From positions 36,134 to 100,133 of the forward strand of contig CAYIYH010000003.1 of assembly GCA_964367585.1 (NCBI GenBank): DNA of 64,000 nt. Reading direction: 5' to 3'. Within the stretch, counting starts at the first letter, position 1, and the number at the start of each line of letters is the position of its first letter. Made by a program: the position numbers and the translations under genes. The notes beneath the pieces are model-generated. The model was not told the origin of the DNA. It was given only the letters and a program-made list of their open reading frames with translations, and did not search any database. Positions 6,645 to 41,860 of this stretch are shown one piece after another. Origin of the DNA: an uncultured Oscillospiraceae bacterium. GTDB lineage: Bacteria > Bacillota > Clostridia > Peptostreptococcales > Anaerovoracaceae.

Positions 6645-6700
6645 ATAACCATGGCACAGACTATCGTGCAAGCACGTTAGAACCTTGGCCTCGATTAAAA
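6645..6700 (+). repeat. Dispersed ~57-bp repeat, copy 1 (ATAACCATGGCAC...TGCAAGCAC...CGATTAAAA)
   Basis: Aligns by eye with 30538-30595, the reverse complement of 40178-40240, and 41803-41860. It abuts the stop codon of the 6701 gene. Confidence 0.75.
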
Positions 6701-7795
6701 TTATTCGCATTCGCAACAACAAGTATCCTCAGTCACATCTACAACTTGTCTCATTACATCGACAGCATCATATATGTCTACTGCCTCAATACATTTTCCA
6801 TCTTTCATAACATACTGTGTTACGCCTAAGATTTGTACCGGTTTGCCAGTAGGAGCACCATACATTCCAAATCCTTCATGGAATCCTCTAATTCTATATC
6901 TTACAGCGACATGATGAGTACCATCATTTTGGTCATTGCATGTAATTCTTTCAATTGTATATTTTGCATTAGGGAATGATGCAAGTAGGTTGATAAGGTT
7001 ACCTTGAATTTCATCATGTCCTACAAGTTTCTCGCCACCTACAGTATGTATCATGCAATTATCTGTGAATAGTTCTTTTGCACGATTAATTAATTTCACA
7101 TTATAAATATCGTTCAATAGCTCTTTGAACATTTCTCCAAGAGAATTGTCTGTTGCTTTGTATGATTCAGGCATTAGCTGTCCCTCCATAGTTTCAGGCA
7201 TTCCCGATATTTTTACTGGAGCCATCGTTTTTGCCATATCTTTTGCGACTTCAAGTGGATCTAATCCTAGCTGCTTAATAACACTTAAATTATCACGAAC
7301 TAGCCATTCCTCATATATTCTATTGTCTTTGATTGCGCAGTCTGCGATTGTGCGGAATACAAGTCTCTTTCCAGTAGCCGGCCCGTATGGAGTTGGTCCA
7401 TAATTTGTAGCCGTTGATAAATTACGATGTGAAGTATAGAATACTCCCGGGCTGTCTTCTGACCAGATTACTTCTTCGCCAATAAGCCTACGATCTGGAT
7501 AACTGTACAGTGTAGACATAGTTCCGGCTACAACACCAGCAATACCAGAACCTGTTCCAGGATTTGTGTGGACATGAACATCATTATGATACGTATCATA
7601 AATAATTCCTATTCCTTTTTCTTCCCAGATTCTATGGGTTATTTTTAAAATATAATCCACAATATCCAAATACTCTGGATCAAAACCAGGTAAATCCTGC
7701 TTTTTTTCCGTATTCTTTAAATAATCGTTGTAGTCTTTGTTCCCAAGAGGGTTCACTGACTCGTTACTACTGTAATACACGGGGATGTTTTTCAT
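6701..7795 (-). CDS. Tandem SnoaL-like/ester-cyclase (NTF2-fold) domain protein with C-terminal CCCECE tail
   Basis: Two SnoaL-like halves (...HRIWEEKGIGIIYDTYHNDV...ATGKRLVFRTIADC... and ...LFTDNCMIHTVGG...APTGKPVQILGVTQY...). I chose the start at ATG 7795 (MKNIPVYY) with AAAAGGAG upstream; the 7852 start in the track is probably too long. Confidence 0.6.
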   Translation of the reverse strand: MKNIPVYYSSNESVNPLGNKDYNDYLKNTEKKQDLPGFDPEYLDIVDYILKITHRIWEEKGIGIIYDTYHNDVHVHTNPGTGSGIAGVVAGTMSTLYSYPDRRLIGEEVIWSEDSPGVFYTSHRNLSTATNYGPTPYGPATGKRLVFRTIADCAIKDNRIYEEWLVRDNLSVIKQLGLDPLEVAKDMAKTMAPVKISGMPETMEGQLMPESYKATDNSLGEMFKELLNDIYNVKLINRAKELFTDNCMIHTVGGEKLVGHDEIQGNLINLLASFPNAKYTIERITCNDQNDGTHHVAVRYRIRGFHEGFGMYGAPTGKPVQILGVTQYVMKDGKCIEAVDIYDAVDVMRQVVDVTEDTCCCECE

Positions 7796-7926
7796 TATGT
7801 TACTCCTTTTTATAATATATACTACCATTACTTCATATTTACTCTTTTTCACATAATAACTTTCTTAAATTATTATAGTAAGAAAGTAAATTGCATCTCA
7901 ATATGTCACTTTTTTCTCTTACAATC

Positions 7927-10491
7927 CTAAATATAACTTTTTTCAGTTAGTATATTAATTGCTTTATCTTTATTGGCAGTGCTTATCATCACGATTGGTC
8001 CTGTGCACCCCATTCCACTTTCTGCATAGATTCCTTCGTTCCAAAGTGCTTCAACTGCGTCTTCTAAATCCATTACCTCTATTCCAGGAATTTGCTCTGT
8101 AACAGGCTCTTTTGCCGGTGCAGGTTTTGCAACTTCTTCTTTAGATGCAGCTTTGTTCGAATTCTTTATGCTCTCGATTATTTCTTTTAGGCCTGCTTTG
8201 TTTGCACTTGCATACTCAGCCTTTGCGATGTCGAACCATTTTCCATTCACTAATGAAGTGGCATATTCGATTGCACCTGATATTACAGGAGCTCCCGATG
8301 CTCTAGAAAGGATCATAACTAGTTTATCATATCCTTCGCCTATTCCAGGACCATATCCGTATCCAGTAGATTCATAATTTCCACCACTAGTATATGCGGA
8401 GAACATCTTAACCATCAAGTTCCCTGTAAGTGCATCCATGACCATGATATCAGATGTTGCGCTCAATAAGTCATTTCCTCTCATTACTATTCCGCCATCG
8501 TCTCTCACTGATTCAGCGAAATTAATGTCATAACCTCTCTTTTTTAGTTCCAATAGCGCTTTTTCGGCTTGTCTCGCACCGTCTATGTTCGCAATTCCTA
8601 CTGTAGGAGACTTAACTCCCGATGCCTTCGCAGAAATAATACCTGCTATTGCATTTCTTACCATAGCCGCAACTCTATCTGTGTCGGATGTACCTGTCGT
8701 ATTTGCAAGATATAGCTCTTTACCTTTAGAAGGAGTTATTATTCTACCTACTGTTGATACACCGATAGGGAAATTGTAGTGCATTGTAACAGCACCTGCA
8801 ATATCGCCGCTTTTTAACATTCCTTCCATCTTAGCGTGGACATCTCCACCTTCAATCAATACGGCAGAATATCCTTTTTTTCTTGCCATTTCGATTCCTT
8901 GTTTGATATTGTCATCGCCATGTTCACTGCCTTCGTTAGCAACACCGATTACAGGGTTACTTCCCGCTGTTGAAATATTGATGCCTTGGGCGTTAAAGTC
9001 TGAAGTCGCTTCTGTGCAAGAGTCCTCTTTAGATGCTGCGCTTCCTTCATTTTTTTCTATCAAGAAGCTAACGCCGTCAAACAAGTTAGTCATTCTACCT
9101 AGGAACAAACTACCTTTACCGATTATCATCGCATTTTTTGTATCTCCTGCTTTGATAGAGTCAATACAATGTCCGATATATGGAACTCCCGAAGGAATAT
9201 GTCCTTGTGTTGGAGCCCAACCCATCATGCCATGTGTTTTTACGAAGTCTCCGATTTGAGCTCTTTCTAGTTCTCCACGTTTAACTCCAAGTGCTGCTAT
9301 CATCTTGTAGTTTGCTTCCGGAACATCTCCTGCCCCTGCAGGTTTTGTGATATCAGGGTTTTGCATTTCTGGTGAGAATTTATCTATATCTGTTAATTTT
9401 AGATTTGCTCTGTCTAGTGGATCTGTCACAAGGCTACTGATTACTGCTTGTGGAGATGATCCTGTTCCAACATTATGTCTTCCGACAATATCAGTTCTAA
9501 CAACTGGGCTTACTGAATCGTCTGCTGTTATTAATACTGCGAATCCTGCAACCACATCTTCCAGGATAGGCATTTCTTTTTTAATATGGTCTTTACCATT
9601 CATTCCCAGTTTTGCAGTACAACCACCACCTGTTACTGCTACAGTCTTAAATGTACCTGCTTTAACTAGTGATGCTGCAGTGAGTATGGCATGAGAAGGT
9701 GCCGCACAGAATCCTCTAACGTCACAGCCAGTAGCATTGATAAAACCTGCAGTTTCAGCTGCTGCTTTTGCAAAGTTTCCACCACCACGTTGGTTCATGT
9801 CTCCACAAGCTTCTTCGCAACAGTCGATTACATATTCTACATCCTCTGCTGCAACTCCTGTAACTTTTACAAGGTTCAATAGTGACAATACGCTAGATGC
9901 TTTTGTAACAAGATTTTCTAATATAACATGAGAAGATAAATTCACGTCTACGTCATGCGCTTTTTTGACCGCTCCTATGAGTTTACCACCATCATATAAT
10001 GGTTCTGCATGCTCTTCTTCAACTAATGCCTTGATATCATCTTCACTGTCTTGATTTTTATCAAGAATATCAGCCTTTTCTCCAGACAATAATGGATGAG
10101 CATTTAATTTTGCTTTTACTGATTCACTGAAACTTTTTTCAAGCTTTACTAGGTCAAATACGTCACATATTTGCATAAGTCCATAAAATTCCGGTTGTGT
10201 TAGGATTTCTCCATGTTTGCCCACTGGTTTTGCATTTTCCGCCTTTTTGTCGAACCATGGTAATTCTATTTTATCTAATTCGTTCGGAGTAATATTACCA
10301 ATATATACTTGGTTAGGAATATAGTTTACTATTTCCTCATAGCTTCGTAGATATTTTGGTATATCCTTCAAATAATCCGAATCGGGATTTACTAATTTTT
10401 CTGTTGTTTGTGTAGTTCCTGCTGTCAATACCATATCAGGAGTAGCTGCTAACGTATATGCCGCTCCTTTTATTACCGCAAAATCGCTCAT
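7927..10491 (-). CDS. grdCD: Glycine reductase complex protein C, GrdC (ketoacyl-synthase-like) fused to GrdD (PlsX-like) in a single 854-aa ORF
   Basis: The N-terminal ~490 aa are GrdC-like (MSDFAVIKGAAYTL...). The C-terminal ~340 aa are GrdD-like (...VTMHYNFPIGVSTVGR...MDALTGNLMVKMF...). The ORF is uninterrupted and sits in grd operon context. Confidence 0.85.
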   Translation of the reverse strand: MSDFAVIKGAAYTLAATPDMVLTAGTTQTTEKLVNPDSDYLKDIPKYLRSYEEIVNYIPNQVYIGNITPNELDKIELPWFDKKAENAKPVGKHGEILTQPEFYGLMQICDVFDLVKLEKSFSESVKAKLNAHPLLSGEKADILDKNQDSEDDIKALVEEEHAEPLYDGGKLIGAVKKAHDVDVNLSSHVILENLVTKASSVLSLLNLVKVTGVAAEDVEYVIDCCEEACGDMNQRGGGNFAKAAAETAGFINATGCDVRGFCAAPSHAILTAASLVKAGTFKTVAVTGGGCTAKLGMNGKDHIKKEMPILEDVVAGFAVLITADDSVSPVVRTDIVGRHNVGTGSSPQAVISSLVTDPLDRANLKLTDIDKFSPEMQNPDITKPAGAGDVPEANYKMIAALGVKRGELERAQIGDFVKTHGMMGWAPTQGHIPSGVPYIGHCIDSIKAGDTKNAMIIGKGSLFLGRMTNLFDGVSFLIEKNEGSAASKEDSCTEATSDFNAQGINISTAGSNPVIGVANEGSEHGDDNIKQGIEMARKKGYSAVLIEGGDVHAKMEGMLKSGDIAGAVTMHYNFPIGVSTVGRIITPSKGKELYLANTTGTSDTDRVAAMVRNAIAGIISAKASGVKSPTVGIANIDGARQAEKALLELKKRGYDINFAESVRDDGGIVMRGNDLLSATSDIMVMDALTGNLMVKMFSAYTSGGNYESTGYGYGPGIGEGYDKLVMILSRASGAPVISGAIEYATSLVNGKWFDIAKAEYASANKAGLKEIIESIKNSNKAASKEEVAKPAPAKEPVTEQIPGIEVMDLEDAVEALWNEGIYAESGMGCTGPIVMISTANKDKAINILTEKSYI

Positions 10492-10602
10492 TTTTCACCT
10501 CATTTTTTATTAGAGAACATTCATTCGCCCTCACATATCATTTAATACTATATATTTTATATGCGTATTTGCTATGCATTTATTTCATTTATTTTAACAA
10601 AT

Positions 10603-10622
10603 GGGCGAGCTTACACTCGCCC
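10603..10622 (-). terminator. Hairpin (possible attenuator/terminator) between grdA and grdCD
   Basis: Stem gggcgag / ctcgccc with a 6-nt loop, 9 nt downstream of the grdA stop. The tail on the minus strand is only moderately T-rich. Confidence 0.45.
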
Positions 10623-10630
10623 ACTATAGA

Positions 10631-11101
10631 TTAGAATTTTGAGTATTGTTCTCTAATAGAGCTCATTTCTGATACTATATCGTCAACATCCAAAACCATC
10701 TCCATCATGCTTATTTGTTCATCATAGACACTTTCGTCTATTTCAGCTTTAACTGGTGGTTCACAAACATGATAAACTGCGAGTCCCAACGAGACTCCTG
10801 TCAATGGCCCAGCGTAAGTTGGATCACCAGCAGTTACAGTTTCAGCAGCTAATCCAGCTGCTTCACCTTCAGCTGCACCTAGTACTACTACTAGATTTTC
10901 AGCTCCATACTGTTCTGCGAAATCCTTAACTCTCTTTTGGTTTTCTAGGTCCATTGCTCCTGCCGCCGTTCAGACGAAGCACTCCGTCGAGGAAAATATT
11001 GTCTCTCCACCGGCAGTTTTTATGCATTCTTCTATAGCTGGTCCAGGAATTCCATCCCTATCGCCAATGACTATAACCTTTTTGTCTTTTAATATTGCCA
11101 T
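10631..11101 (-). CDS. grdA: Glycine reductase selenoprotein A; in-frame UGA (Sec) at 10970-10972, codon 44
   Basis: My translation is [55 protein letters not shown]..., continuing into track ORF 10631-10954. GGAAAGGAGG lies upstream of the ATG at 11101. Confidence 0.9.
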
Positions 11102-11269
11102 CACTATTCCTCCTTTCCATTATGATTCGTAGTGAATTACAAAGTTTATTTCTAAGCTACGTAATTCGCTGTATTTGTATTATTAACCTATAACCGAATG
11201 AGCTGATTTAACTCGTTTGGTTAATACCATTAAGAATTAAATGCTCAATTGGTTATGTCAAATTGAAAG

Positions 11270-11587
11270 TTAGATATATTTTTGGATCATAGCCTCGATA
11301 TTTTCGGCAGTCGCATCTTCTTTGACTAATTCTTCAATTTTTTCGCCACCCTTGTATATCGCAATTACAGGAAGACCCATAATTTTTTGACCAATTGCTA
11401 GTCTTCTTGCTTGTGTTGTGTTTAGCTTGCAAAATTTTATCTTGTCTCCGTATTTTCCAGACAATTCCATTACGTGTGGCATTAAAGCTTCACAAGGAAC
11501 ACATCCATCACCAAAAAAGTCTACTAAGACGACTCCGTCCGCTTTTAAAACTTCCTCTTCGAATGTTACTTTATCACATGTTACCAT
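11270..11587 (-). CDS. trxA: Thioredoxin (GCVPC active site)
   Basis: 105 aa with the motif [11 protein letters not shown], in grd operon context. Confidence 0.9.
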
Positions 11588-11766
11588 TTTTTTCTCCTAT
11601 TTATACAATATAAAACCTTTTAGTACTTACATAATAAACGATTAATCACATGATACCATTTTTATTTGCGCATTTCAAGAATACAAAATGAACTTTATGT
11701 TCACTTTGACTCACATATTACATTCACGTTTTTAAGATGTGCAATATGGTTCATAATGATTAATTT

Positions 11767-12699
11767 TTACTCGTTTTCTTCTATGTATTTCTCCGCTTGG
11801 ACCGCTGCAATTGCACCGTCTGCCGCTGCTGTGACAACTTGTCTTAGGCTTTTCACACGAATATCTCCCGCAACGAATACACCAGGAACACTTGTCTTCA
11901 TGTTTTCATCAGCAACAATATATCCATTTTGCATTTCCATTTTGCCTTCGAATATCTTTGACAAAGGAGCAAATCCTATGAAAACAAATACTCCAAATGT
12001 ACCATCTTCTTCGTCTGCAAATATTTCTTTTCTTTCGCCTGTCTTGACATTTTCTACAATCATAGACTCTAGCAATCCGTCACCTTTTAATTCTTTGATG
12101 ACAGAGTCCCACATGAAATCTATCTTTGGATTTGCTTTTGCTTTTTCTTGAATAGATTTCGCAGCTCTGAGTTCATCTCTTCTATGGATTATAGTAACTT
12201 TTCTTGCGAACTTAGTAAGATACATAGCTTCTTCCACTGCAGAATCGCCGCCGCCGACGACGTATACTTCAAAATCTTCAAAAAACGCAGCATCACAAGT
12301 TGCACAGTATGAAACACCTTTTCCGGTAAATTCCTTTTCTCCAGGGCATCCTATATGTATTGGAGTTGCGCCTGCAGCAATAATAACTGTTTTAGCTTGG
12401 TAGCTTTCTTTTTTACACTTGATTGTCTTGACAGGGCCTTCTAGATCCATGTCTTCTACAGTATCAAAAACTTTCTCAGCACCAAAATGCGAAGCTTGTT
12501 CTGACATTCTTTTTATTAGTGATGGTCCAGATTCTTCATCTATTCCACCTGGATAGTTTTCGATTTCTGACGTTTGTACGATCTGTCCACCGTCTTTATC
12601 TCTTTCAATAATCAATGTAGACATTCTTGCCCTACCTGCGTATAGTCCAGCAGAAAGACCTGCAGGACCCGCACCGATTATTATTATATCGTATACCAT
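11767..12699 (-). CDS. trxB: Thioredoxin reductase
   Basis: 310 aa with IIGAGPAGLSAG FAD motif, CATCD redox-active disulfide and VVGGGDSAVEEA NAD(P) motif. Confidence 0.9.
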   Translation of the reverse strand: MVYDIIIIGAGPAGLSAGLYAGRARMSTLIIERDKDGGQIVQTSEIENYPGGIDEESGPSLIKRMSEQASHFGAEKVFDTVEDMDLEGPVKTIKCKKESYQAKTVIIAAGATPIHIGCPGEKEFTGKGVSYCATCDAAFFEDFEVYVVGGGDSAVEEAMYLTKFARKVTIIHRRDELRAAKSIQEKAKANPKIDFMWDSVIKELKGDGLLESMIVENVKTGERKEIFADEEDGTFGVFVFIGFAPLSKIFEGKMEMQNGYIVADENMKTSVPGVFVAGDIRVKSLRQVVTAAADGAIAAVQAEKYIEENE

Positions 12700-12753
12700 T
12701 AATTTTCTCCTCTACTTTAACAAATTATGAAAGCTAAATAATCTTGCTATATT

Positions 12754-14064
12754 TTATTCAAATATTGTTTGTTTGTCAACAGGTGAAGATAGAGCTTCTA
12801 GTGCTTTTTCTACGATTTTGCGTCGAAGTGCTTTTTCTTCTTCCATCGAAATAGTTGGTTTTCCAAATGGATGAGGTATTGCAATTGCAGGAACTATTCT
12901 ATTTGCACCTACTGTCAATGAAATAGGAGTTACAGTACAAACGTGTACTACAGGTATACCCGCTCTTTCAATTTCTTTTACCATCGTTGCGCCGCAACGA
13001 GTACAAGTTCCTCAGGTAGATGTTAGGATAACTGCATCCACTCCGTCATTTTTAAGTTTTGATGTAAATTCAGTTGCAAATTCTCTAGAAGAAGCTACAG
13101 ATGTACCGTTTCCTGTTGTAGTGTAAAACAGATTATGCAAAGATCCGATTACTCCCTCTTTTTCCATGTCTCTGAGTACATCTACTGGCAATACTCTGTC
13201 TGCATCCTTGTTTGCATATACTGGGTCATATCCACCGTGGGCAGTTTCGTATTCACCTTCTAACAAGTCATTTACACCAGCTATATCATATTCTCCATAG
13301 TGTGAAGCACTTGAACTTTCGATATTATCAGGGTTACCTATTGGAACTATTCCGCCTGAAGTCACTAATGCAACTTTTGCTTTTTTCATATCAGCAATAG
13401 GTTGTGCAGGTTCTACCCTATCAAAATTCGGCATAGGATATTCTGTAGTGTATGGCTTTCCTGATATTTTGTTTAGAAGCATATTTACAGCTCTCTTAGA
13501 GCCTCTTTCTTCTTCGAAGAAGTTAACACGAACATCGTTAGGCAAGTATCCTTCTTCTACTGAAGCTCCTACAGCCTCTTTTTTTGCAAGTTTTAATGCG
13601 AGTGATACCATCTTTGGAACAGCATCTTTCATTCCTACCGCACTATTTTTTGTAGCGATAGTGTATACTTGATTCTTGTACATGTCTGCACCAGGATTCT
13701 CTTCATACATACCTGTCAAAGAAGGGATTCCTAATTCTTCTTGCACTAATGTAGCTACAGTACCGCATGCTACACCATAACGTCCTGCATTGAATGCAGG
13801 TCCTGCAATGAATATATCAGGTGATTGTGATTTTACCATTTCTAGTATCGTTGCTTTTGCTTCCTCAAGATTTTCATTAAAATATGAATCTCCGCAAACA
13901 ATTGTTGCAACTATTTCCGCCTCGTCTCCGAATTGAGTTTTGAATGCAAGACCAGGTCCGACAACTTCTCCCACACGGAGCTCAGCCTTATAGTCTGCTT
14001 TTTCTTCACCACCTATGTTGGCGAAAAATTGGTTTATATAATGGACGACTTTAATTTTTCCCAT
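12754..14064 (-). CDS. grdB: Glycine reductase protein B selenoprotein subunit; in-frame UGA (Sec) at 13012-13014
   Basis: Track ORFs 13012-14064 and 12754-12984 are in the same frame. They join as ...DAVILTST-U-GTCTRCGATMVKEIE..., the characteristic GrdB UxxCxxC region. Total length is 436 codons plus stop. Confidence 0.9.
12985..12999 (-). promoter_or_regulatory. Candidate bacterial SECIS hairpin for grdB
   Basis: On the minus strand, cgttgc-ggc-gcaacg (6-bp stem) begins 12 nt after the UGA. Confidence 0.45.
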
Positions 14065-14082
14065 TTTACTTCTTTATCCTTT

Positions 14083-15366: not shown

Positions 15367-15462
15367 ACGTATTCCTCCTCTTTTTTTATCAATACCCCAC
15401 ATTCTCGATGTGATATATTCAGAAATATAGTCTATATATATTGTGTTTACACACGTTTTGAA

Positions 15463-15846
15463 TCAAAGTCTATCGGCAGATGCTATTGCACTTGAAATCA
15501 AATCAAAATCTATCAATTGGAAATCTCTATATACTTTTTCATTATATTCGCCTCTTTTATCTTGAAACTTATCGCAGGATAATAGTGCACTCTCAATCAT
15601 ACTAAGGGATTGCTCATCGAGGCCGCTGTATTTCGTACTTATCATTATAGATTTATATGGCGTTTCCTTTGGTTTGAGACTGCCTGATAGGGGATGGGAA
15701 AGAAGCTTTGCACCTTTATGCACTTCATCTCGAACCTTTTTCAATACATCTTCATATGAACCATTAATATACTCTATATTTTTTTTTTCTTTCAAACTTT
15801 CGAATGTTAGAGGATTATTGGTGATTATGATATAGTCCGTTTTCAA
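15463..15846 (-). CDS. grdX: GrdX protein
   Basis: 127-aa ORF in the first position of the grd operon, with a TTG start preceded by GGAGAG. The sequence resembles GrdX as I remember it. Confidence 0.7.
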   Translation of the reverse strand: MKTDYIIITNNPLTFESLKEKKNIEYINGSYEDVLKKVRDEVHKGAKLLSHPLSGSLKPKETPYKSIMISTKYSGLDEQSLSMIESALLSCDKFQDKRGEYNEKVYRDFQLIDFDLISSAIASADRL

Positions 15847-15939
15847 TATTCTCTCCTAAATTAAATAAACCATAGAGATGCAATTATTATGCTGCGGTAA
15901 AGTGAGATAAAACACGCATTTTTTTACATTAATAAAAAA

Positions 15940-15977
15940 AGGAGTAAAAAAATGCTGTCTAACATTTATTCACTCCT
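15940..15977 (-). terminator. Terminator hairpin of the glycine riboswitch expression platform
   Basis: On the minus strand, AGGAGTGAATAAATG...CATTTTTTTACTCCT is followed by TTTTTTT. Confidence 0.55.
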
Positions 15978-16016: not shown

Positions 16017-16118
16017 CAGTCCCTTTTCTAATCCATTTGCCTGAAAGATTCACATGACACTAAATTCATGCTTGCCTCTTCGGCGCTTCTTTAACGAAGA
16101 CTCTCTTAGAAATCATCA
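16017..16118 (-). promoter_or_regulatory. Glycine riboswitch (single aptamer) upstream of grdX
   Basis: The minus strand reads AGAGAG-N14-GCGCCGAAGAGGCAAG...CTTTCAGGCAAATGG...GGGACTG. This matches the conserved GGAGAG...CACCGAAGGGGCAA...CUCAGGCAAAAGGAC core. I see only one aptamer. Confidence 0.7.
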
Positions 16119-19589: not shown

Positions 19590-19686
19590 TGGCGAGAGTA
19601 TGTGGGAATCGAACCCACCCAAGAGGCTCCTAACCCCTCGAACCGATTTTGAAGATCGGAAGGCACACCAGCACCCATCTACCCTC
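19590..19686 (-). tRNA. selC: tRNA-Sec (anticodon UCA), CCA encoded
   Basis: The minus strand reads GAGGGTAGATGGGTGCTGGTGTGCCTTCCGATCTTCAAAATCGG...long variable arm...GGGTGGGTTCGATTCCCACATACTCTCGCCA. It has a CU-UCA-AA anticodon loop and a GGTTCGATTCC T-arm, and is ~97 nt long. Confidence 0.85.
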
Positions 19687-19722
19687 ATGTAACATTATTT
19701 ATTCGTCAAACTTTAAAATAAA

Positions 19723-24385: not shown

Positions 24386-24540
24386 CTTTATCCCTATAAA
24401 TTATAACCATTGCACGCTGTCCCCCGCCTCTTAGTCTTCTTTTTACCATATAGCTATCAGCACAGCCAGAATTCTTATTTACTAATATAGTATAACATAT
24501 TATCCGCGCATTTTTATAAGTGCATAAGAAATTTATAAAA

Positions 24541-29150: not shown

Positions 29151-30515
29151 TTAACCATTTTGCCTTTTTATGTTTAATTTATTTAACTTGTAGTTTAACA
29201 ACTGTTTAGATATATTTAATTTTTTTGCAGCTTCGACTTTATTGCTACTTTTTTTCATAATTTCAGCAATGTATGCTCTTTCAAATTCCAACATGCTTTT
29301 ATCTAATGATGTCATTTCCTTAACATGTTTCTTTGCCTGATATTCATAATATATTCGCTTTGGTATATCAGAGATAGTAATTATTCTATCATCCGTCAAA
29401 TGACACATTGCCTCTACTACATTCTTCAACTCTCTAATATTTCCTGGCCAGGAATACGCTTTTAAACACTCCATCGTCTCTTTGTCAACTTCTCTAACCA
29501 TTTTAGGGTTATCATTCTTTAACTGATTCAAAAAATATTCTACTAGAAGCTCAATATCAGATCTTCTTTCATGAAGAGACGGAACATCTAGAGTTATTGC
29601 ACTAATTCTATAGAATAAATCTTTTCTCAAATTCCCAATTCTAATTGAATCAAAAGGATCTTCATTACATGCGCAAATTATTCTAACATCAACAGGAACA
29701 TATTCTTGACCACCAATCTTCATTATTTTTTGTTCCTCTATTGCCTTTAGTATTTTACCTTGAGATTCTATGTCCATCGAGTTAATTTCATCTAAAAACA
29801 ATGTTCCCCCTGTTGCTAATTGGAAAATTCCCAATTTATTTTCCGCTCCGGTAAATCCCCCTTTTTCGGTTCCAAATAAAATACTCTCAAGTAAATTACC
29901 AGGAATTGCTGCACAGTTTTGCGAGATAAAGGGCTTTCTTTTTCTATCACTAGATGAGTGAATAGCTTGTGCAACTAATTCTTTACCTGTTCCCGTATCT
30001 CCACATATCAAGATTGGCATATCAGTCTTTGCAGCTTTTTTAATTAGCTCCTTTAACGAAATCATCTTCTCATCTTTTGTTATTATGTCATCAAGCGTAT
30101 AATTCCTATTCTGCCCGATTCCCTTTTTGCTTTTTAAATAAATTGCGTGATTATTCTTTTTCACATCATGAATTTTTGCAATTTCTACAGCACCTACGAC
30201 AACACCATCTTCGATAATTGGTAATGTATCAACGATACCAGTATGTGTATCTCCCTTAAATGTAGTCCAAGTAGTCAAGTGATTTAATATTGGTTTCTCA
30301 GTTTTAATCACCTTATACATATTACTGCTTTCTTCGTTTGAGCTCACATAAACATCAAACAAGTGTGAGCCTATAATCTCTTTTAAATCAAAAGAATATG
30401 CCCCATCTAAAAAAGTTTCCGCATATACAATATACCCATCCTTATCAATAATGCATATATCGTCTACCAAATTATACAGCATTAGTATACGTTCAATATT
30501 ATGTTGCAGCATCAT
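29151..30515 (-). CDS. Sigma54-dependent transcriptional activator (PAS + AAA+ + Fis-type HTH)
   Basis: Motifs GDTGTGKELVAQAIH, ESILFGTEKGGFTGA and a C-terminal HTH. The start is ATG 30515 or 30512 (MMLQH) with GGAGG upstream. The track's N-terminal extension reads through repeat copy 2. Confidence 0.85.
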   Translation of the reverse strand: MMLQHNIERILMLYNLVDDICIIDKDGYIVYAETFLDGAYSFDLKEIIGSHLFDVYVSSNEESSNMYKVIKTEKPILNHLTTWTTFKGDTHTGIVDTLPIIEDGVVVGAVEIAKIHDVKKNNHAIYLKSKKGIGQNRNYTLDDIITKDEKMISLKELIKKAAKTDMPILICGDTGTGKELVAQAIHSSSDRKRKPFISQNCAAIPGNLLESILFGTEKGGFTGAENKLGIFQLATGGTLFLDEINSMDIESQGKILKAIEEQKIMKIGGQEYVPVDVRIICACNEDPFDSIRIGNLRKDLFYRISAITLDVPSLHERRSDIELLVEYFLNQLKNDNPKMVREVDKETMECLKAYSWPGNIRELKNVVEAMCHLTDDRIITISDIPKRIYYEYQAKKHVKEMTSLDKSMLEFERAYIAEIMKKSSNKVEAAKKLNISKQLLNYKLNKLNIKRQNG

Positions 30516-30537
30516 ATGCCTCCTAATATATGTTATT

Positions 30538-30595
30538 ATAACCACGGCACGGACTAATCGTGCAAGCACATCAGCTCCTTAGCATCGATTTAAAA
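30538..30595 (+). repeat. Dispersed ~57-bp repeat, copy 2
   Basis: ATAACCACGGCACGGACTAATCGTGCAAGCACATCAGCTCCTTAGCATCGATTTAAAA. Confidence 0.75.
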
Positions 30596-34098: not shown

Positions 34099-34177
34099 AT
34101 TCTTCTCCTAACTTTTAATAAATCTTATTAAATTATATATAACTTTTTTCTCTGCCTGGCTTAAGTGTTATGTAACT

Positions 34178-35092: not shown

Positions 35093-35169
35093 TTAACTTA
35101 TCCTTTCATATAAACTCTGCACTAATGCAATAATACCTTAATTTTTATTGATGCCCACAAATGAACGAT

Positions 35170-35728: not shown

Positions 35729-35810
35729 ATCCCCACCCCTTTCTTATGCATATAATTATAGCATAATAATATACAAAATGTAATAATACTATGATTTAGT
35801 TTGCAAAAAT

Positions 35811-38267
35811 TTACTGTGTTTCTAAATATAGAAGAAAACCAAACAGGATTATTCCTACTGATGATACTACTATCCCTGCATTTTTCAATGGAGCTTTGAA
35901 TTCTAGGGTAAATTCGTGATCACCGGCTGATAGCTCTGCTCCTACATATCTGCCATTGACCTTTTCTATCTCAATCCTTTCGCCGTTCACAGTCAATTCG
36001 AATCCCTCTGAGTATGGAATAGATGTCACCAAATAGCCGTCTTCCCCCATAGAAATTTCACCACTGATAATATCTCCATGCACGTCATTGATTTGAGCTT
36101 CGATAATACCATCCGACACACTGTCCAAATATCCCAATTCACCTACAAAAATCTGAACATTCTCGATAGAATGTAACCCTTTGGAAAACTGAAAAGTAAG
36201 CATATCTAAATCGGAACTTGCAAACACATAGTTAAAATTATAGTTTCCATTGTGATACTTCCAGTCTTCCATAGTGAGTCTATTATTTTGATCATTTATG
36301 CCTATCGTCATATCTTTTCCGGGGCTCGTCTCGTTTGAATTGTTTTCAAAATTAATGATCAATATTTTGCCTTGCATATAGTAGGGAAGTTTATATTCGT
36401 ACGTTTCAGTTTCATTCCCATTGATTTCATAAGAATCTCCAAATGTTTTAAATTCTATTAAAAATTCCTCGGGTAGATGTACTTCTTCAAAATTAAATTC
36501 TGTTTTTATCGATTCGACTCCTAAATTTGCATTTTCGACAACTACACCCTCTAGCAACAACTCATTATTATATGGATATGTTAAAGAACCAAAGTAATTC
36601 GTTGAAAAAATGTTACTGCTCCCATATATTATCGGGAAGGCGAGGCGATTTTCGTATACTACCAATCCATCATTTTCATTTCCGATATCATTGAAGTTGC
36701 TATTATCGTTATTATTGTCAGTCTCATTCTCGTTTTTTTCTTCGTGTGCTATTTCCTCAACTTCCTCATGCCCATACGTATTGAATTCCCCTGCCCCCTT
36801 TTTGCTCACAATATATTTACTTCCATTTACTATATTGAATATCGGATTTTCGGTTTCCGATATAATATTAGAACTCCTATTCCTGTGATTGTTATTAAAA
36901 ATATCAAAGTAGGCTTCGTGATAATTCAAGTTTGTGGTGGAAGAATATAAAGTGCTAATGTTATGATTTTTATCTGCGACTGTGTTTATTTCCGACATGC
37001 CCATATTGCTTGTGCTTATTCTATAAAACCCGTCGTCGCCCGAGATTATTTCTCTTACTATATTTTCGTACTCACTACTGTCCAAAGCTCTTTCTTCCAC
37101 ATAATCATCCATGCTCGATCCGATAAGTCCAATACTTACAGAGCTAATCATCAACAAACACATCAGCGGTCGCATCAAAACTTTTCGATTTAGAACTTGC
37201 GAACTCCATACTAAAAACTCTTTTATTGATATTATCATAAGTGGCAAAAACGGGATTAATATTTTACCTTCTACATACATAAATCCGTTTAACACGTACG
37301 TAATAATTGGGAATACTACGGGAAGTGCCAACATAATGCCCAGGAATCTTTTTTCTCTTCTTTGAGTTAACAAGTATATTATGCTTATTAACCCAATCAA
37401 TCCCAATCCTATGCCATAATACCTATACAAAATAAAGTGCAAATTAACAGCCGGTAAAAGTAGGTTCAATAAATTTTCATCGGTATTTACCGAAGTTCTA
37501 TTCGTCAATATTACATAAAATGTCGGCAATATTAGGAATGTGGACATCAATACTCCCACGAAAACTGGCGAAATAAAATTAATTCCGTCTATAATAAATG
37601 ATTTAATTCGAACGGATTTATTCAAGGCGATATATCGATATACCCCATATATTATTGTAGCGATAATTGCCGAAATGCTGTAGTAATAGCTCGTCATAAT
37701 GATCAAAAAAATCGCAATAGATAATAATGCATTTTTACCTTCTTCTAATTTTTTATCTACTCCCCAAAGTGCTAGTATCAAAAAGGGCATATAGAGCATA
37801 AACATTATATGTCTGTGCGAATGAAAGAACATTCCTCCTGAAAACATGAATATTACAGACAAGCAAAAACTAGTAAATGGAGTGACATCTTTTTTACGAA
37901 AAAATGCATACATAATAATCGTTGCAGATAGGACTGCAACGATGGAAATTATACTAATATAAGTCGTCATTTCTAGGGTTGGGAATAGATATGAAGGCAA
38001 AATTAACGGGTTAAATAGTCCGTAGTATACGATGTTGTATATGTTCTGCCCGCCTCCAAGATTCATTGCAAAATCCGGAAAAATGTCGCCCGTATCATAA
38101 TACAATTGCCTTAGGTAGTCTGGAAAAACAGTATGCTGAAATTGCCAGTCCATCTCTGAGCCATACATTTTATTCGGGAATATTAACATTCCAACTGCCG
38201 CAATAAGTAAAATAAAAAGAAAAAGAATCGATATGAAATCCGATTTTTGAGGGAATTTTTTTTGCAT
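35811..38267 (-). CDS. YfhO-family membrane protein (GT-C-like extracytoplasmic glycosyltransferase)
   Basis: 818 aa with an N-terminal multi-TM region, a large extracytoplasmic domain and a C-terminal TM. It lies in the same locus as GtrA and GT2 genes. Confidence 0.7.
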   Translation of the reverse strand: MQKKFPQKSDFISILFLFILLIAAVGMLIFPNKMYGSEMDWQFQHTVFPDYLRQLYYDTGDIFPDFAMNLGGGQNIYNIVYYGLFNPLILPSYLFPTLEMTTYISIISIVAVLSATIIMYAFFRKKDVTPFTSFCLSVIFMFSGGMFFHSHRHIMFMLYMPFLILALWGVDKKLEEGKNALLSIAIFLIIMTSYYYSISAIIATIIYGVYRYIALNKSVRIKSFIIDGINFISPVFVGVLMSTFLILPTFYVILTNRTSVNTDENLLNLLLPAVNLHFILYRYYGIGLGLIGLISIIYLLTQRREKRFLGIMLALPVVFPIITYVLNGFMYVEGKILIPFLPLMIISIKEFLVWSSQVLNRKVLMRPLMCLLMISSVSIGLIGSSMDDYVEERALDSSEYENIVREIISGDDGFYRISTSNMGMSEINTVADKNHNISTLYSSTTNLNYHEAYFDIFNNNHRNRSSNIISETENPIFNIVNGSKYIVSKKGAGEFNTYGHEEVEEIAHEEKNENETDNNNDNSNFNDIGNENDGLVVYENRLAFPIIYGSSNIFSTNYFGSLTYPYNNELLLEGVVVENANLGVESIKTEFNFEEVHLPEEFLIEFKTFGDSYEINGNETETYEYKLPYYMQGKILIINFENNSNETSPGKDMTIGINDQNNRLTMEDWKYHNGNYNFNYVFASSDLDMLTFQFSKGLHSIENVQIFVGELGYLDSVSDGIIEAQINDVHGDIISGEISMGEDGYLVTSIPYSEGFELTVNGERIEIEKVNGRYVGAELSAGDHEFTLEFKAPLKNAGIVVSSVGIILFGFLLYLETQ

Positions 38268-38313
38268 AGTTTGAGCCTTTATTTTTGATAGTATATTTTA
38301 CATATTTAAGCCT

Positions 38314-39003
38314 TTATTTTGGAGAGATTTTTTTAAGGAATATATCTGTATCTCGTTCAATTAATTGAAGCTTTTTACTTACGATGTTAATGTATTTTTC
38401 TTCGTTCTTTTGCGATATATCTCGTTCATTTTCCAATATTTCCAAGTATGCGATTATTTCCGACAATGGAGATTTGCATTGATTTATGTATTCTATTCTC
38501 ATATCGTTTTCTCTATTTTTTTTATATTGTTTTTCCGCTGCTTTTATGCTATCCTTTTGAATTTCTATGTTTATTATATCTTCTAATTTGTATAAAACCT
38601 TATCATGTTTACCTAAATCATATTCCTGCGAAACGCCTTTTTTCTTACAGAACATTATTATCGAATCTATATATTCTTTATCCTTTTTTTGTTCTTGATA
38701 ATACATTACATATATTATTAGTACAACTAAAACCGCAAAGAATATATCTCTTGGCATTCCTGCATAAATTATAAAATTGAGGAAACCATACTGATCATAA
38801 TATTGATATGAAAACATAATTCCCAAAATTACAGAAAGAAGTAGCAACGATGTATAGAGCGCGATTACAGTAATTATTATCTTTTCCCAGAATATCTTTT
38901 GCAAATTTATTATTCTATCATCATTATTTTTCGATTGATTTTTCCAGCGTTTTTTTCGCCTTCTGTGAATACTATCAGATATGTTTTTAAACAATACTAA
39001 CAT
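38314..39003 (-). CDS. Membrane protein with a degenerate HisKA (DHp)-like C-terminus and no ATPase domain
   Basis: It has two TM segments, then EYINQCKSPLSEIIAYLEILENERDISQKNEEKYINIVSKKLQ. This aligns to the H-box of the upstream kinase (YLAHDLKTPLTSIIGYIDLLKEESNLSDENKEKYLSIALKKAK) with Asn in place of His. Confidence 0.45.
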   Translation of the reverse strand: MLVLFKNISDSIHRRRKKRWKNQSKNNDDRIINLQKIFWEKIIITVIALYTSLLLLSVILGIMFSYQYYDQYGFLNFIIYAGMPRDIFFAVLVVLIIYVMYYQEQKKDKEYIDSIIMFCKKKGVSQEYDLGKHDKVLYKLEDIINIEIQKDSIKAAEKQYKKNRENDMRIEYINQCKSPLSEIIAYLEILENERDISQKNEEKYINIVSKKLQLIERDTDIFLKKISPK

Positions 39004-40177
39004 AATTATCACCCTGTCCTATAACTGGATTGGTATCTATCTCTTCGCTATTCTTTTCGAAAGAAGTTATCGGTAAAATTACTACAAATTCAACATATCC
39101 ATCTTGGCTCATTGCCTCGATAGTGCCACCATGTATTTCGACTATTTTTTTTGTGATTGCTAAACCTAATCCAGTACCCCCCGTTTCCGATTGTCTAGAT
39201 TCATCACTCCTATAAAATTGATCGAATACTCTTTTTAACTTCTCTTCCGGGAGCGTTTCTCCTGTATTTCTGAATTGCAATACTACATTGTGCCCTATCC
39301 TTTTAAGGAATATATTTATTTCTCCACCTTCTTGAGAATATCTGACGGCATTAGTCATAAGATTATCGATTACACGCTCTATTTTGTCCACGTCGCATTT
39401 TATTTCTACATCCTTTTCTAAATCGAGAGTACATTTAATATTCTTTTTTTCTTGTGCTATAGCATATTCGGATGACATTTGTTCTATGAATCGTGTAATA
39501 TTTATATTCTGATAGTTTAGTTCGATTTCTGATAAATTAAACCTAGTAATATCGAAGAACTCGTTAATCAAGTAGTCTAATTTTTTTGCTTTTTTTAATG
39601 CTATAGATAAATACTTTTCTTTGTTTTCGTCTGACAAATTAGATTCTTCCTTCAAAAGATCTATGTATCCAATTATAGATGTTAATGGAGTTTTCAGGTC
39701 GTGCGCCAAGTATACGATGAGATTGTTTTTTCTCTGTTCCGTCTCAATAATCGCTCTTTTCTTATTTTCGCTTTCGGAAATAATTTGATTCATTTGACGC
39801 TCTATTTCCTTTAAATCATCGGGAAGCGAAATCATTTCCGTACGTCCCTTGCTTATTTCCGCAGTAGCCAATGCGATTGCATTTAAATTCTTCTCTCTTA
39901 TCCGTAACTCTTTTCTGACAAGCAACAATAGAGCAATAGTTGATGCGATGATGATTATAAAATAGTCATTTATCAAAAAAATTCTATATATTCCATCTAC
40001 TACTATATATAAAGTGTACCAAAATTCTTCTCTACCCGGTTCACTTGTAAAATTACTCAAAGTCCAAGCTAATTGATCAGATCCCTCTAAAAGTAATTGG
40101 ACTGTAATTGTGATTACGGCCAACACTATCACAAACTTTATTACTAATTTTCGAAACATCTTATTATTTTCCTCCAT
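38987..40177 (-). CDS. Sensor histidine kinase (VanS/OmpR-partner type)
   Basis: It has two TM segments, an H-box (LAHDLKTPL), an N-box (DNLMTNAVRY) and G-boxes (GGTGLGLAI). The start may be the second ATG at 40159. Confidence 0.85.
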   Translation of the reverse strand: MEENNKMFRKLVIKFVIVLAVITITVQLLLEGSDQLAWTLSNFTSEPGREEFWYTLYIVVDGIYRIFLINDYFIIIIASTIALLLLVRKELRIREKNLNAIALATAEISKGRTEMISLPDDLKEIERQMNQIISESENKKRAIIETEQRKNNLIVYLAHDLKTPLTSIIGYIDLLKEESNLSDENKEKYLSIALKKAKKLDYLINEFFDITRFNLSEIELNYQNINITRFIEQMSSEYAIAQEKKNIKCTLDLEKDVEIKCDVDKIERVIDNLMTNAVRYSQEGGEINIFLKRIGHNVVLQFRNTGETLPEEKLKRVFDQFYRSDESRQSETGGTGLGLAITKKIVEIHGGTIEAMSQDGYVEFVVILPITSFEKNSEEIDTNPVIGQGDNYVSIV

Positions 40178-40240
40178 TTTTAAATCGAGACTAAGGAGCT
40201 AACGTGCTTGCATGACTACTCCGTCGTATCGTGGTTATAT
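40178..40240 (-). repeat. Dispersed ~57-bp repeat, copy 3 (inverted orientation)
   Basis: The reverse complement reads ATATAACCACGATACGACGGAGTAGTCATGCAAGCACGTTAGCTCCTTAGTCTCGATTTAAAA. It fills almost the whole GT2-HK intergenic gap. Confidence 0.75.
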
Positions 40241-40250
40241 CCGTACTCTT

Positions 40251-41240
40251 TTATACTACTTTCCTATGTAAATGAAGCGCATTTTCTCTTTTCTTCAAGA
40301 TCATTGTTTTTGGTATTCTCTCGGTTTCTTCACTGATAATATATACGGGACGGTCTTTGACTTCCTCATATATTTTAGACATATAGTACCCTATAACTCC
40401 TAGGGATATCATCAATATACTACTCATAAACAATGTTGTCAAAATTACTGTCGTAAATCCTTCTAATGCTACTCCGGCAAAATACATCGCAAAAGTGTGG
40501 ATTGATAAGATAGATGCTCCTATCAAGAGTACCATTCCTAAAAATGTAATTGCCTTAAGAGGCATATTTGAAAAGCTTGTAATATTATTGATTGCATAGT
40601 TAATTAATTGTTTTACTTTCCATTTGCTCTCACCATGCTGTCTTTCTTCTACACAGTAATATACTTTAGTGGTTTTAAATCCAACCCAGGAAGATAGCCC
40701 TCTTAGAAACATGTTTTTTTCAGGTAAATCCCTGAGAACTTGTACGACCTTTTTATCGAAGAGCTTAAAGTCTGATGCATTTTCCATGTCTAATTTCATT
40801 GTCCTACTCATTAAGTCATAGAATTTTTTCGATGCGAACTTGTATGCCGAAGACTCGTTACCCCTATCACTCTTTACTCCTTCTACAATTTCATAGCCTT
40901 TCAGCCAAAGGTGATACATTTCGACTATCTTTTCGGGCGGGTGTTGCATGTCACAATCTATTATTACACAACACCCCCCATTTACATAATCAAGACCTGC
41001 TTTCATGGCAGCTTCTTTTCCAAAATTTCTACTAAATCTTACCCCTGTCACATTTTCATTCTTTTTCGCTTCCCCAATTATATACTGATAAGTATCATCC
41101 TGTGAACCGTCATCTACAAATATTATTTCGTAAGGAATATTCTTTTCTACAAAAATCCCTTTTAATCTCTCGCCTATGAGCCTAACTCCTACTGACTCGT
41201 TATACGCAGGAATAATGATGCTGATAATTTTATTTTCCAT
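40251..41240 (-). CDS. Family 2 glycosyltransferase (GtrB/CsbB-like polyprenyl-phosphate sugar transferase)
   Basis: 329 aa with N-terminus ISIIIPAYNE, DDGSxD and DCDMQHPP motifs, and two C-terminal TM helices. Confidence 0.85.
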   Translation of the reverse strand: MENKIISIIIPAYNESVGVRLIGERLKGIFVEKNIPYEIIFVDDGSQDDTYQYIIGEAKKNENVTGVRFSRNFGKEAAMKAGLDYVNGGCCVIIDCDMQHPPEKIVEMYHLWLKGYEIVEGVKSDRGNESSAYKFASKKFYDLMSRTMKLDMENASDFKLFDKKVVQVLRDLPEKNMFLRGLSSWVGFKTTKVYYCVEERQHGESKWKVKQLINYAINNITSFSNMPLKAITFLGMVLLIGASILSIHTFAMYFAGVALEGFTTVILTTLFMSSILMISLGVIGYYMSKIYEEVKDRPVYIISEETERIPKTMILKKRENALHLHRKVV

Positions 41241-41334
41241 AATTTACTCCCCTCTAATAAAACAGATAGCCTAGATATAAAATTACGATACATTCGAGGC
41301 AACTTATTTACACTTAAATCTAGATACTATAGTA

Positions 41335-41787
41335 TCATTCCGAGAATAATACTTTTTCTCTTTTGCTAAAAACAAATACTTTCCCCGTGATATAGTTAAC
41401 AACAATTACTATTGCAGACACTATTATCTTAGATTCAATATCTCCAATAGCGAACAAATACACGGACGACCATATTAGTGCCATTTCCAGGAACATGGAA
41501 AACACCCTACTCCAAACAAAAATTATACATTCTCGAATAATTCCCTTATCTCTGCTTTGAAACACGACTACTCTATTAGCTAAATACGCAAAGATTACTG
41601 CAACTATCCAACTTATGAAATTGGCGAATATAATATCTACATGAAAAAGTCTTGTCGCAAGTACATATACACTCCAGTTAACGACTGTCGTCACGATGCC
41701 AATCATTAAATAAGCAGATATTTCCCGTGTCAGTTTTTTACCTCTCATATCAACAATGACTCTATTCGTTCGAATATTTTGCTCCAT
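41335..41787 (-). CDS. GtrA-family membrane protein (putative lipid-linked sugar flippase)
   Basis: 150 aa with four TM segments and a GtrA-like pattern (...ANRVVVFQS...). GGAGG lies upstream of the ATG. Confidence 0.8.
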   Translation of the reverse strand: MEQNIRTNRVIVDMRGKKLTREISAYLMIGIVTTVVNWSVYVLATRLFHVDIIFANFISWIVAVIFAYLANRVVVFQSRDKGIIRECIIFVWSRVFSMFLEMALIWSSVYLFAIGDIESKIIVSAIVIVVNYITGKVFVFSKREKVLFSE

Positions 41788-41802
41788 TTTTGCACCTCCA
41801 TT

Positions 41803-41860
41803 TGCAACATGGCACCGACTTATAGTTAAAGAACTTATGCTCCTTTGCCCCGATTCAAAA
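41803..41860 (+). repeat. Dispersed ~57-bp repeat, copy 4 (more diverged)
   Basis: TGCAACATGGCACCGACTTATAGTTAAAGAACTTATGCTCCTTTGCCCCGATTCAAAA. It shares the GGCAC, GCTCCTT and CGATTNAAAA blocks. Confidence 0.6.

Follow-up and report, generated by a model that had tools for sequence, protein, structure and literature searches.

Intergenic repeats of an uncultured Oscillospiraceae bacterium as deleted relics of a larger structured element that may have moved as a folded single strand

Four copies of an intergenic repeat of about 57 bp are scattered over a 64,000-nt stretch of DNA of an uncultured Oscillospiraceae bacterium (the window, i.e., C3:36134-100133 of genome G000; 1.89 Mb, 24 contigs, 35.6% GC). 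What is this repeat, and is it mobile DNA, a functional RNA, or both? The mobility of small structured repeats that lack a transposase (BOX, ERIC, bcr and the like), and the reason for which genomes retain them, are a long-standing and mostly unsolved puzzle. The comparison of the window copies with the rest of the genome and with related genomes leads to the conclusions that: (i) the window repeats are eroded, internally deleted derivatives of a larger structured repeat family, which is settled; (ii) this family expanded in a lineage-specific manner and is now inactive in G000; (iii) with a likelihood a little above even, the 57-bp repeats are dead relics of a non-autonomous element of ~175-185 nt that multiplied via a folded single strand, most likely by means of a Y1/HUH enzyme. 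The estimate given for (iii) covers its relic part too. The family is previously undescribed.

The short repeats as deletion forms of a larger element

The first-pass annotation had proposed a dispersed intergenic repeat with four copies. All four are located by direct reading, each within 1-2 nt of where it had been placed. An nhmmer profile built from them was run against the whole of G000 and gives back the four copies (E from 7e-18 to 9e-15) and 48 further loci, i.e., 52 loci at E<1e-3. With a profile of the full-length element the family amounts to about 60 loci in G000 (52-63 over the searches), i.e., ~1 copy per 31 kb, and homologues are found in relatives. All the members of G000 except one are intergenic on a crude map of open reading frames (ORFs). 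The general kind suggested at first, i.e., a dispersed intergenic family resembling repetitive extragenic palindromes (REPs) or miniature inverted-repeat transposable elements (MITEs), is supported.

The 57-mer is not the unit of this family. Many matches of short copies, printed with their flanks, extend upstream into conserved sequence, and all-versus-all extension and alignment yields discrete size classes of ~58, 98 and 171-187 nt. The full-length unit (171-187 nt) has the ends TATAAC...CGATTTAAA, and its consensus in G000 is TATAACCACGGCACGATGTCCCCCGCCTCTATAGGTGGCGGGGGACATTTCCGACTTTCAGTGGCGAGTACATAATCTCCCACTGAAACCCTGAGAGGCTAATCGCCTCTCGTGCCAGCTTGCAATCTTCGGCACGGACTAATCGTGCAAGCACGTTAGCTCCTTAGCCTCGATTTAAA. 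According to the full-length profile, G000 contains ~11 full-length copies, ~23 short 3' cores, ~12 medium or 5'-truncated copies and ~9 fragments with the 5' part only. The 57-mer of the window is made of nine bases of the 5' tip (TATAACCAY) and of the 3' hairpin of the full element.

The heptamer CGGCACG occurs twice in the full element, at nt 8-14 (5' strand of the helix P1) and just 5' of GACTAATCG (5' arm of the 3' hairpin). The 58-nt form has the sequence TATAACCA-CGGCACG-GACTAATCG..., i.e., the exact product of a deletion between the two heptamers, and the ~120 nt lying between them are missing from the 57/58-nt form. What had been taken as the unit is a deletion derivative of an element of ~180 nt. 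The junction of the 98-nt form corresponds to a deletion between two CGCCTCT repeats. Further sizes (39, 45, 78, 107 and 119 nt) have other microhomologies at their junctions, and two copies of a related genome, G080, have a deletion between CTGAG repeats.

The copies of G000 are 84-90% identical to their consensus. Contig C3 has 11 members within 86 kb, and 10 of these lie on the + strand. A literature search with four conserved 12-13-mers gave irrelevant matches only; exact-pattern scans gave 3 chance matches in unrelated phyla among public genomes and none in metagenomes.

A distinct sub-family of the 3' hairpin, with CTTA/TAAG and CATG/CATG stems and ending in GATTATATA, is observed at G000:C17:14696-14752 and 15841-15970. 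It comprises a head-to-tail pair with a period of ~84 nt beside an assembly gap of 100 N, and a third, inverted copy 1.1 kb off. The pair may be a collapsed tandem array.

Conserved fold and homologues in other genomes

Taken as a single strand, the full-length consensus of G000 forms a very stable fold in both senses (-80.3 and -86.7 kcal/mol, z -8.6 and -7.4). The 7-bp helix P1 (GGCACGA/TCGTGCC) closes three hairpins, HP1, HP2 and HP3, thus forming a four-way junction. It is followed by a linker, by a long imperfect 3' hairpin, AATC..GGC..GGACTAA.CGTG-CAAG-CACG.TTAG.TCC..GCC..GATT, which carries a conserved GCAAGC loop, and by a tail TAAA. HP1 begins ~16 nt from the 5' end and the 3' hairpin stops ~5 nt before the 3' end.

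No covarying helices had been seen at first, because most of the window copies fold no better than shuffled sequences. Folded as single-stranded DNA (ssDNA), three of the four are indistinguishable from shuffles (z -0.6, +0.8 and +0.3), and a marginal value is obtained for the copy at 30537 (z -1.9, 7/200 shuffles). Within G000 alone the signal is modest: 5 of 18 hairpin pairs show a compensatory change between sub-lineages. The deviations at paired positions are as often G-T (31) as A-C (31), and this symmetry matches the neutral decay expected of inserted DNA. Helices do exist, and they covary strongly once other lineages are added.

These lineages were obtained as follows. BLAST over 41 genomes (G000 included) finds the family in G000 only, plus one match in G001, a genome of the same genus. 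The same bacterial family, which is like Anaerovoracaceae or Sedimentibacter by its ArgH relatives, was screened over 120 genomes with R1, a covariance model (CM) of the 3' hairpin. R1 finds 3 copies in G001, 6 in G054 and 9 in G080, and no copies were detected in the ~115 other genomes. In total G080 has ~22 copies, mostly full-length, in two sub-families (G080-A and G080-B); ten copies show 92-98% identity with their consensus. The copy number is thus uneven among relatives (~60, 3, 6 and ~22 in G000, G001, G054 and G080, respectively). The ends of the G080 copies, TATAAC... and ...CGATTTAAA(T), are those of G000, and blocks of HP1, HP2 and the GCAAGC loop are shared too. The 58-nt form is found in three genera. 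The positions of the copies are not conserved between relatives carrying the family, and the argH loci of three relatives have no copy.

With a joint model, R3, searched in 150 genomes of the order, a relative of 116 nt (TATAACTAAATTAAGATGTCCCCCGCCTCTATAGGCGGCGGGTTCCACTTAATTTTTTCAGTGGGAGTTCAATCTCCCACTGAAAACGTTGAATGACGGGCAAAGCCCTTATTGAA) is found in another bacterial family of the same order (G223, G245 and G196). It has the same 5' tip, HP1 and HP2, without the 3' hairpin. G223 contains 9-12 copies of this version, 93-100% identical to their consensus, and G245, though of a different genus, has a copy that matches the consensus derived from G223 at 97% identity. A second repeat family of G080, unrelated to the first, was also observed (~165 nt, rich in GC hairpins, at least 12 copies, 80-94% identity; L053:171-337, G080:C165).

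The consensuses of three sub-lineages (G000, G080-A and G080-B), folded independently, share one architecture. P1 is GGCACGA/TCGTGCC in G000, GCCTGAG/CTCAGGC in G080-A and TCGCAG/CTGCGA in G080-B. HP3 is GAGAGGC/GCCTCTC in G000 and GAGGAGC/GCTCCTC in G080-A (G080-B was not compared). The stems of the 3' hairpin are nearly all replaced between genomes while the loop is retained. For the copies of G080 by themselves, RNAalifold predicts 50 pairs, and a compensatory change is seen at 16 of these. The model made from G080 only, R2, recovers 10/10 full-length copies of G000 end to end (E from 2.5e-14 to 5.5e-6). In the joint alignment to R2, 90.6% of the cells are paired and 33 of the 50 pairs have two-sided changes, although these counts lean towards structure since the alignment is fitted to the model; P1 (7/7 pairs) and the 3' hairpin (11/11) have changed on both sides throughout. 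The observed values are reached by 0/500 shuffles, and slid controls remain at or below 41%. The covariation across lineages is strong support for a conserved fold of the full element. When only pairs with a Watson-Crick majority in their group are considered, G-T (56) exceeds A-C (37), a weak lean towards the forward strand (p=0.06).

Mobile single strand, leader RNA, or both

In the reading that is slightly favoured here, the family would multiply through a folded single strand that transposes. This strand would most likely be ssDNA, with a HUH/Y1 enzyme (IS200/IS605-type) acting on it in trans. G000 would later have lost this enzyme, its remaining copies then only decaying. Loss of the ~120 nt between the CGGCACG copies would yield the 57/58-nt stubs, and other microhomologies the other sizes. 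From the lineage-specific expansions and the near-identical copies of other genomes we infer mobility itself; the single-strand intermediate and the Y1 enzyme are presumed.

What kind of mobility would this be? No flanking direct repeats, i.e., no target-site duplications (TSDs), were found in 31 two-ended copies of G000, nor in 20 copies of G080. As for terminal inverted repeats (TIRs), the two ends, TATAACCACGG... and ...CCTCGATTTAAA, are no inverted copies of one another, and the comparison of TATAACCACGGC with TTTAAATCGAGGC is unconvincing. Both features of the classical MITE, a possibility contained in the early suggestion, are therefore absent. Several features together speak against a cut-and-paste MITE and indicate that the element moves, or acts, in the form of a folded single strand: TIRs and TSDs are lacking, the ends are asymmetric and conserved, the hairpins are subterminal, and a single-strand fold is under constraint. 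A MITE of the classical DDE type (IS630/Tc1-like or similar), moved by cut-and-paste, would also be small, multi-copy and intergenic with AT-rich ends, and it is usually a T or an A that follows the 3' end. Such an origin is nevertheless highly improbable: besides the absence of TSDs and of a convincing TIR, the asymmetric ends are conserved across genera, and G000 has no rve or DDE_Tnp_1 match and no IS-like (insertion-sequence-like) repeats >250 bp.

In favour of a Y1 enzyme, the freshness of the copies parallels the presence of Y1 genes, a parallel drawn from three or four genomes only: the copies of G223 are younger than those of G080, and the latter younger than those of G000. G223, G196 and G245 contain many Y1 genes (25 Y1 matches in G223), most of them of 250-318 aa and like REP-associated tyrosine transposases (RAYTs). 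Of the four IS200-like loci of G080, at least some have decayed and contain internal stop codons. Their ends are unlike the element overall. The right-end hairpin of one of them, GGAACCCGCCGAC-TTTCA-GTCGGCGGTGGTTC, is similar to the HP1 arms and to the first part of HP2: in local alignment z is 4.5-6.5 and none of 300 shuffles scores as high, simple shuffles being a lenient null for GC-rich palindromes. As a link to Y1 this likeness is suggestive only.

Several observations weigh against this reading. (i) In G000, none of six Pfam families (Y1_Tnp (PF01797), TnpB zinc-ribbon, rve, DDE_Tnp_1, RVT_1, IS110) gives a match, and the controls of these transposase and reverse-transcriptase searches responded; G001 and G054 are without Y1 and TnpB; the small contigs C18-C24 show no obvious transposase ORF in their translations, which were read without a Pfam scan. 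(ii) The Y1 loci sampled in G223, G245 and G196 share nothing with the element, ten Y1 loci besides the one of G080 show no similarity to it, and an autonomous element with the same ends was not found in any genome examined. (iii) The 5' and 3' hairpins of the element are unlike each other, IS200/IS605 ends usually carrying similar ones, and a transposase needs the ends only, yet the whole 170 nt is structurally constrained. (iv) Over all the copies of G000 no replication-orientation bias was found (27:36 by the sign of the GC skew). (v) The search for an empty site gave none, no close strain being on record: G001 has only 65-73% DNA identity, the nearest ArgH is 86% identical, GtrA has no exact match on record, and G080 has no same-genus relative in the set. 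(vi) Since the 58-nt form occurs in three genera, the short form may itself have propagated, or the long form may be composite. (vii) The bias of the intact copies is better described as facing a gene start (see below), with 13 divergent gaps against 1 convergent, plus one f5 copy without a called left-hand gene; this points to an RNA-level or expression-linked property.

Two side observations concern the same genomes. The RAYT-like genes (L139, L136, L140; G223:C25, G245:C19) have a C-terminal extension and their own inverted flanks, of the GGGACG(G/C)TT type. In G000, full-length copies lie 6:2 forward on the strand with positive GC skew and 58-nt copies 5:12, which is not significant (p=0.08).

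The orientation of the copies was expressed with reference to the neighbouring genes: a copy faces a gene start when its 3' end points at a gene start and not at a gene end. The gene maps used are crude ORF maps, and the related genomes are not independent samples. In G000, 9 full-length copies face a gene start and 2 a gene end; the corresponding values are 9 and 14 for short copies, 6 and 6 for medium copies, and 1 and 8 for the fragments with the 5' part only (Fisher test, full-length vs. short: p=0.03). The mixed orientation first described for the short copies is confirmed; they are antisense or ambiguous, including three of the four in the window. In G080, 17 of the 18 full-length copies face a gene start, and their gaps are divergent (eight), co-directional sense (eight), antisense (one) and convergent (zero). 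The 116-nt family behaves in the same manner (9/10), with the upstream stop codon located within TATAAC in four cases. For the intact copies of the three lineages pooled, the ratio is 35:4 (p=3e-7). The distance from the 3' end to the start codon is often just 7-40 nt, thus about half of the intact copies must be co-transcribed with the gene. The downstream genes are functionally unrelated (dtd, ECF sigma, rplS, flgB, truA, carA, uppS-like, transporters).

These values are the main argument for another explanation, ranked second and distinctly less probable, according to which the intact element is primarily a cis-acting structured RNA. Placed in 5' leaders or between cistrons, it would stabilise, process, insulate or condition the downstream mRNA; it would have spread by some unspecified route, selection keeping the sense copies while antisense or useless ones collapse to 57-bp stubs. 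The covariation over the whole length and not at the ends alone, the near-identity of the G245 copy to the G223 consensus across genera and the weak forward-strand excess of G-T over A-C agree with it. On the other side, the unrelated downstream genes exclude a ligand-specific riboswitch; near-identical copies within one genome mean recent multiplication, for which a mechanism of mobility is still needed; several copies lie upstream of apparent promoters, i.e., outside the 5' untranslated region (UTR); and no sigma-70 promoter or terminator is predicted inside the element. Neither is there a match to a known RNA, as had been stated at first. At the gathering threshold, Rfam 15 finds in the window only tRNA-Sec, SECIS_4 and a glycine riboswitch, all outside the repeats; at the E-value threshold, eight full-length copies of G000 and six f5-type loci give chance miRNA matches only. 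The initial preference for a DNA-level element over a cis-RNA therefore holds for the relics (31:31 decay, weak folding) and is unsettled for the intact element, oriented as it is towards gene starts.

The two readings do not exclude each other, the Y1/HUH one being placed first and the cis-RNA one second. The orientation rule, the loss of non-conforming copies and the covariation over the whole length are unexplained by a transposase alone. A further reading, somewhat more doubtful than the cis-RNA by itself, is that the intact element of ~180 nt, with its four-way junction and hairpin, is a mobile, self-contained RNA module of a new kind, inserted or retained only in sense and directly upstream of start codons, where it would act on the host mRNA. 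It might, for instance, insulate or stabilise this mRNA, or serve as a leader that processes itself or directs a nuclease; its spread would depend on the RNA or on its ssDNA image. If true, it would be a bacterial counterpart of the mobile RNAs that bear ribozymes or guides, and one absent from Rfam.

Other candidates were tried and rejected. TATAAC is not an insertion mark in -10 boxes, as there is no enrichment of -35 boxes 16-18 nt upstream. A sigma-54 promoter (GGCAC...TTGC) was discarded by reading, its spacing and order not fitting on either strand. The readings as tRNA-like, hammerhead-like or attC-like were rejected on inspection of the core motifs; for integron attC in particular, the copies are dispersed singly and their termini do not fit RYYYAAC...GTTRRRY by reading (intI was not searched for). 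It should be added that TATAA is constant at the left edge in the three lineages and holds the upstream stop codon in several copies, target and element sequence being inseparable without empty sites.

How does the family compare with known systems? Like PATE/IS200-IS605 derivatives and REPIN-RAYT, in which HUH Y1 enzymes act on hairpins of ssDNA, it is short, non-coding and multi-copy, with neither TIR nor target duplication. It further has sharp asymmetric ends, subterminal hairpins and a constant motif at the left boundary (TATAA), and its 5'-end hairpin resembles the IS200-like right-end hairpin of G080 described above. It differs from them by: (i) the absence of a Y1 gene in G000 and in two other carriers (G001, G054), Y1 being present but decayed in G080 and abundant in G223 and G196; (ii) dissimilar end hairpins and a constraint on the whole element; (iii) intact copies pointing to gene starts, without replication-strand bias. 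REPs are 20-40 nt long and flank a RAYT gene; here the unit has ~180 nt, G000 has no RAYT, and no link to the element was found for the RAYT-like genes of G223 and G245, with their own unrelated GGGACG-type flanks.

BOX (Streptococcus pneumoniae), bcr1 (Bacillus cereus group) and Correia/ERIC, structured intergenic repeats from Firmicutes and Proteobacteria, resemble the family in general features: they have ~100-200 nt, tens of copies, an intergenic location and a strong predicted structure, are modular with size variants, have no linked transposase and are co-transcribed with their neighbours. A sequence relationship is not expected. Moreover, bcr1, Correia and RUP carry TIRs and TSDs, both absent here. 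For BOX, bcr1, Correia and ERIC we know of no report of a fold with a four-way junction and covariation across genera, combined with a 35:4 bias in orientation.

Multi-copy cis-regulatory RNAs (e.g., c-di-GMP riboswitches) also have a covarying multi-helix fold and lie in sense upstream of diverse gene starts. The family differs from them in that copies of one genome are up to 100% identical, including at non-essential positions, and are thus recent duplicates. Neither an Rfam match nor a terminator expression platform is found, and many copies are antisense or truncated. Compared with a riboswitch or leader, the covarying fold is present, and the sense position in the 5' UTR of functionally related genes is not.

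The interest of the family for the puzzle of small repeats lies in its unusually clean handles. Its ends are sharply conserved from genus to genus, its fold covaries throughout, and its lineages represent three stages, the copies being young in G223, of intermediate age in G080, and extinct and eroding in G000. The intact copies, moreover, obey an orientation rule (35:4) that deleted copies do not follow. Combined, these handles make the choice between mobile DNA, functional RNA or both directly testable.

Copies of the window and their surroundings

The members located in the window are given in Table 1, together with other features of the same stretch.

Table 1. Repeat copies, fragments and neighbouring features of the window (positions in the window).
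Feature	Position	Strand	Score
Short copy 1 (57 nt)	6644..6700	+	nhmmer E=2.6e-16; CM R1 65.5 bits; ssDNA fold z=-0.6
5'-end fragment, TATAACCATTGCACGCTGTCCCCCGCCTCTTAG	24402..24436	+	full-length profile, model 15-50, E=0.0056 (weak alone)
Short copy 2 (58 nt)	30537..30594	+	nhmmer E=7e-18; CM R1 77.4 bits
Short copy 3 (61 nt)	40179..40239	-	nhmmer E=7.7e-15; CM R1 57.6 bits
Short copy 4 (58 nt, diverged)	41802..41859	+	nhmmer E=8.8e-15; CM R1 51.7 bits
5' fragment, TATAACCAC...	49471..49529	+	full-length profile, model 11-79, E=4.3e-9
SECIS_4	12974-13011	-	Rfam, gathering level
Glycine riboswitch aptamer	16019-16118	-	Rfam, gathering level
tRNA-Sec	19594-19686	-	Rfam, gathering level
Histidine-kinase gene	38990-40159		
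Response-regulator gene	42011-42751		

Short copy 1 is the 5' tip TATAACCATGGCAC fused to the 3' hairpin module, and it terminates in GATTAAAA. It sits in a convergent gap, 3' of the argH terminator, and the stop codon (6701-6703) of a minus-strand SnoaL-domain gene directly adjoins it. Short copy 2, the best preserved, occupies a divergent gap. It is antisense to a minus-strand sigma-54 activator gene and lies 14 nt upstream of the ribosome-binding site of this gene; an ORF of the + strand starts 67 nt downstream. Short copy 3 has a small insertion in the 5' arm and is located, in sense orientation, between the stop of a GT2 gene and the histidine-kinase gene. Short copy 4, antisense, lies between the stop of the response-regulator gene and the start of gtrA; its tip is TTGCAACA in place of TATAACCA, the TATAAC tip being gone, and its stem AGTT/AACT replaces CGTG/CACG, i.e., a compensatory change.

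The annotation of the window had listed the four short copies correctly and had missed the 5' fragment at 49471-49529 (E=4e-9). This fragment contains HP1 and the beginning of HP2, breaks off after CAGACTTTC and lies antisense between two minus-strand genes. The remnant suspected at 24403-24445 is real though weak (E=0.006); it is, at 24402-24436, the opposite (5') end of the element and not a deleted 57-mer. It comprises the 5' tip, the 5' strand of P1 and the 5' arm of HP1, the remainder being lost, and is located between the start of a sortase gene and the stop of the MttB gene.

The precise abutment of copies on gene ends is true of the stop codon next to short copy 1. The start at 40177 (ATG), cited in the same sense, is probably an artefact of ORF extension: it has no Shine-Dalgarno (SD) sequence, and GGAGG at 40171-40175 precedes the ATG at 40159. 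The GTG start at 30569 is another artefact of ORF calling, the sigma-54 activator gene having its own GGAGG and ATG at 30512-30523. The string resembling an SD plus a start codon, noticed in the reverse orientation of the copies, arises from reading the hairpin (3' arm and loop) in reverse and is coincidental. For annotation in general, repeats of this kind create false ORF extensions and SD-like strings (30569 and 40177 in the window).

The short copies could finally be sites on DNA, either bound by a host protein (operator or nucleoid protein) or used in recombination, which would delimit the 24-kb grd/sel/MttB block or gtrA-GT2. Copies 1 and 2 do form direct repeats at a distance of 24 kb, as had been pointed out. 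This bracketing is expected by chance, since the contig has 11 members, 10 of them on the + strand, and one fragment lies between; it is therefore uninformative, and a composite element is unsupported. The inverted copies 3 and 4 flank gtrA-GT2, which splits the response-regulator/kinase pair, the orthologues of which are adjacent and overlapping in G003 and G008. Against such sites, the copies have diverged and are in part destroyed (the TATAAC tip is missing from copy 4), with a symmetric decay; at ~1 per 31 kb and 10/11 in the same orientation chance bracketing is again expected; the 24-kb block contains a further fragment (24402), and another occurs elsewhere (49471); and relatives with the family have no conserved positions. 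Sites of this kind are accordingly improbable, if less so than a DDE-type MITE.

Two observations on the neighbouring genes may be added. The Rfam matches of the minus strand (Table 1) agree with the context of glycine-reductase and selenoprotein genes. The response-regulator and histidine-kinase genes, adjacent and overlapping in L090 (G003) and L091 (G008), are here separated by gtrA and the GT2 glycosyltransferase gene, which the inverted copies 4 and 3 flank with their 3' ends outward. Repeats of the family also mark places of local rearrangement, e.g., this split pair, and may have mediated the insertion of gtrA-GT2.

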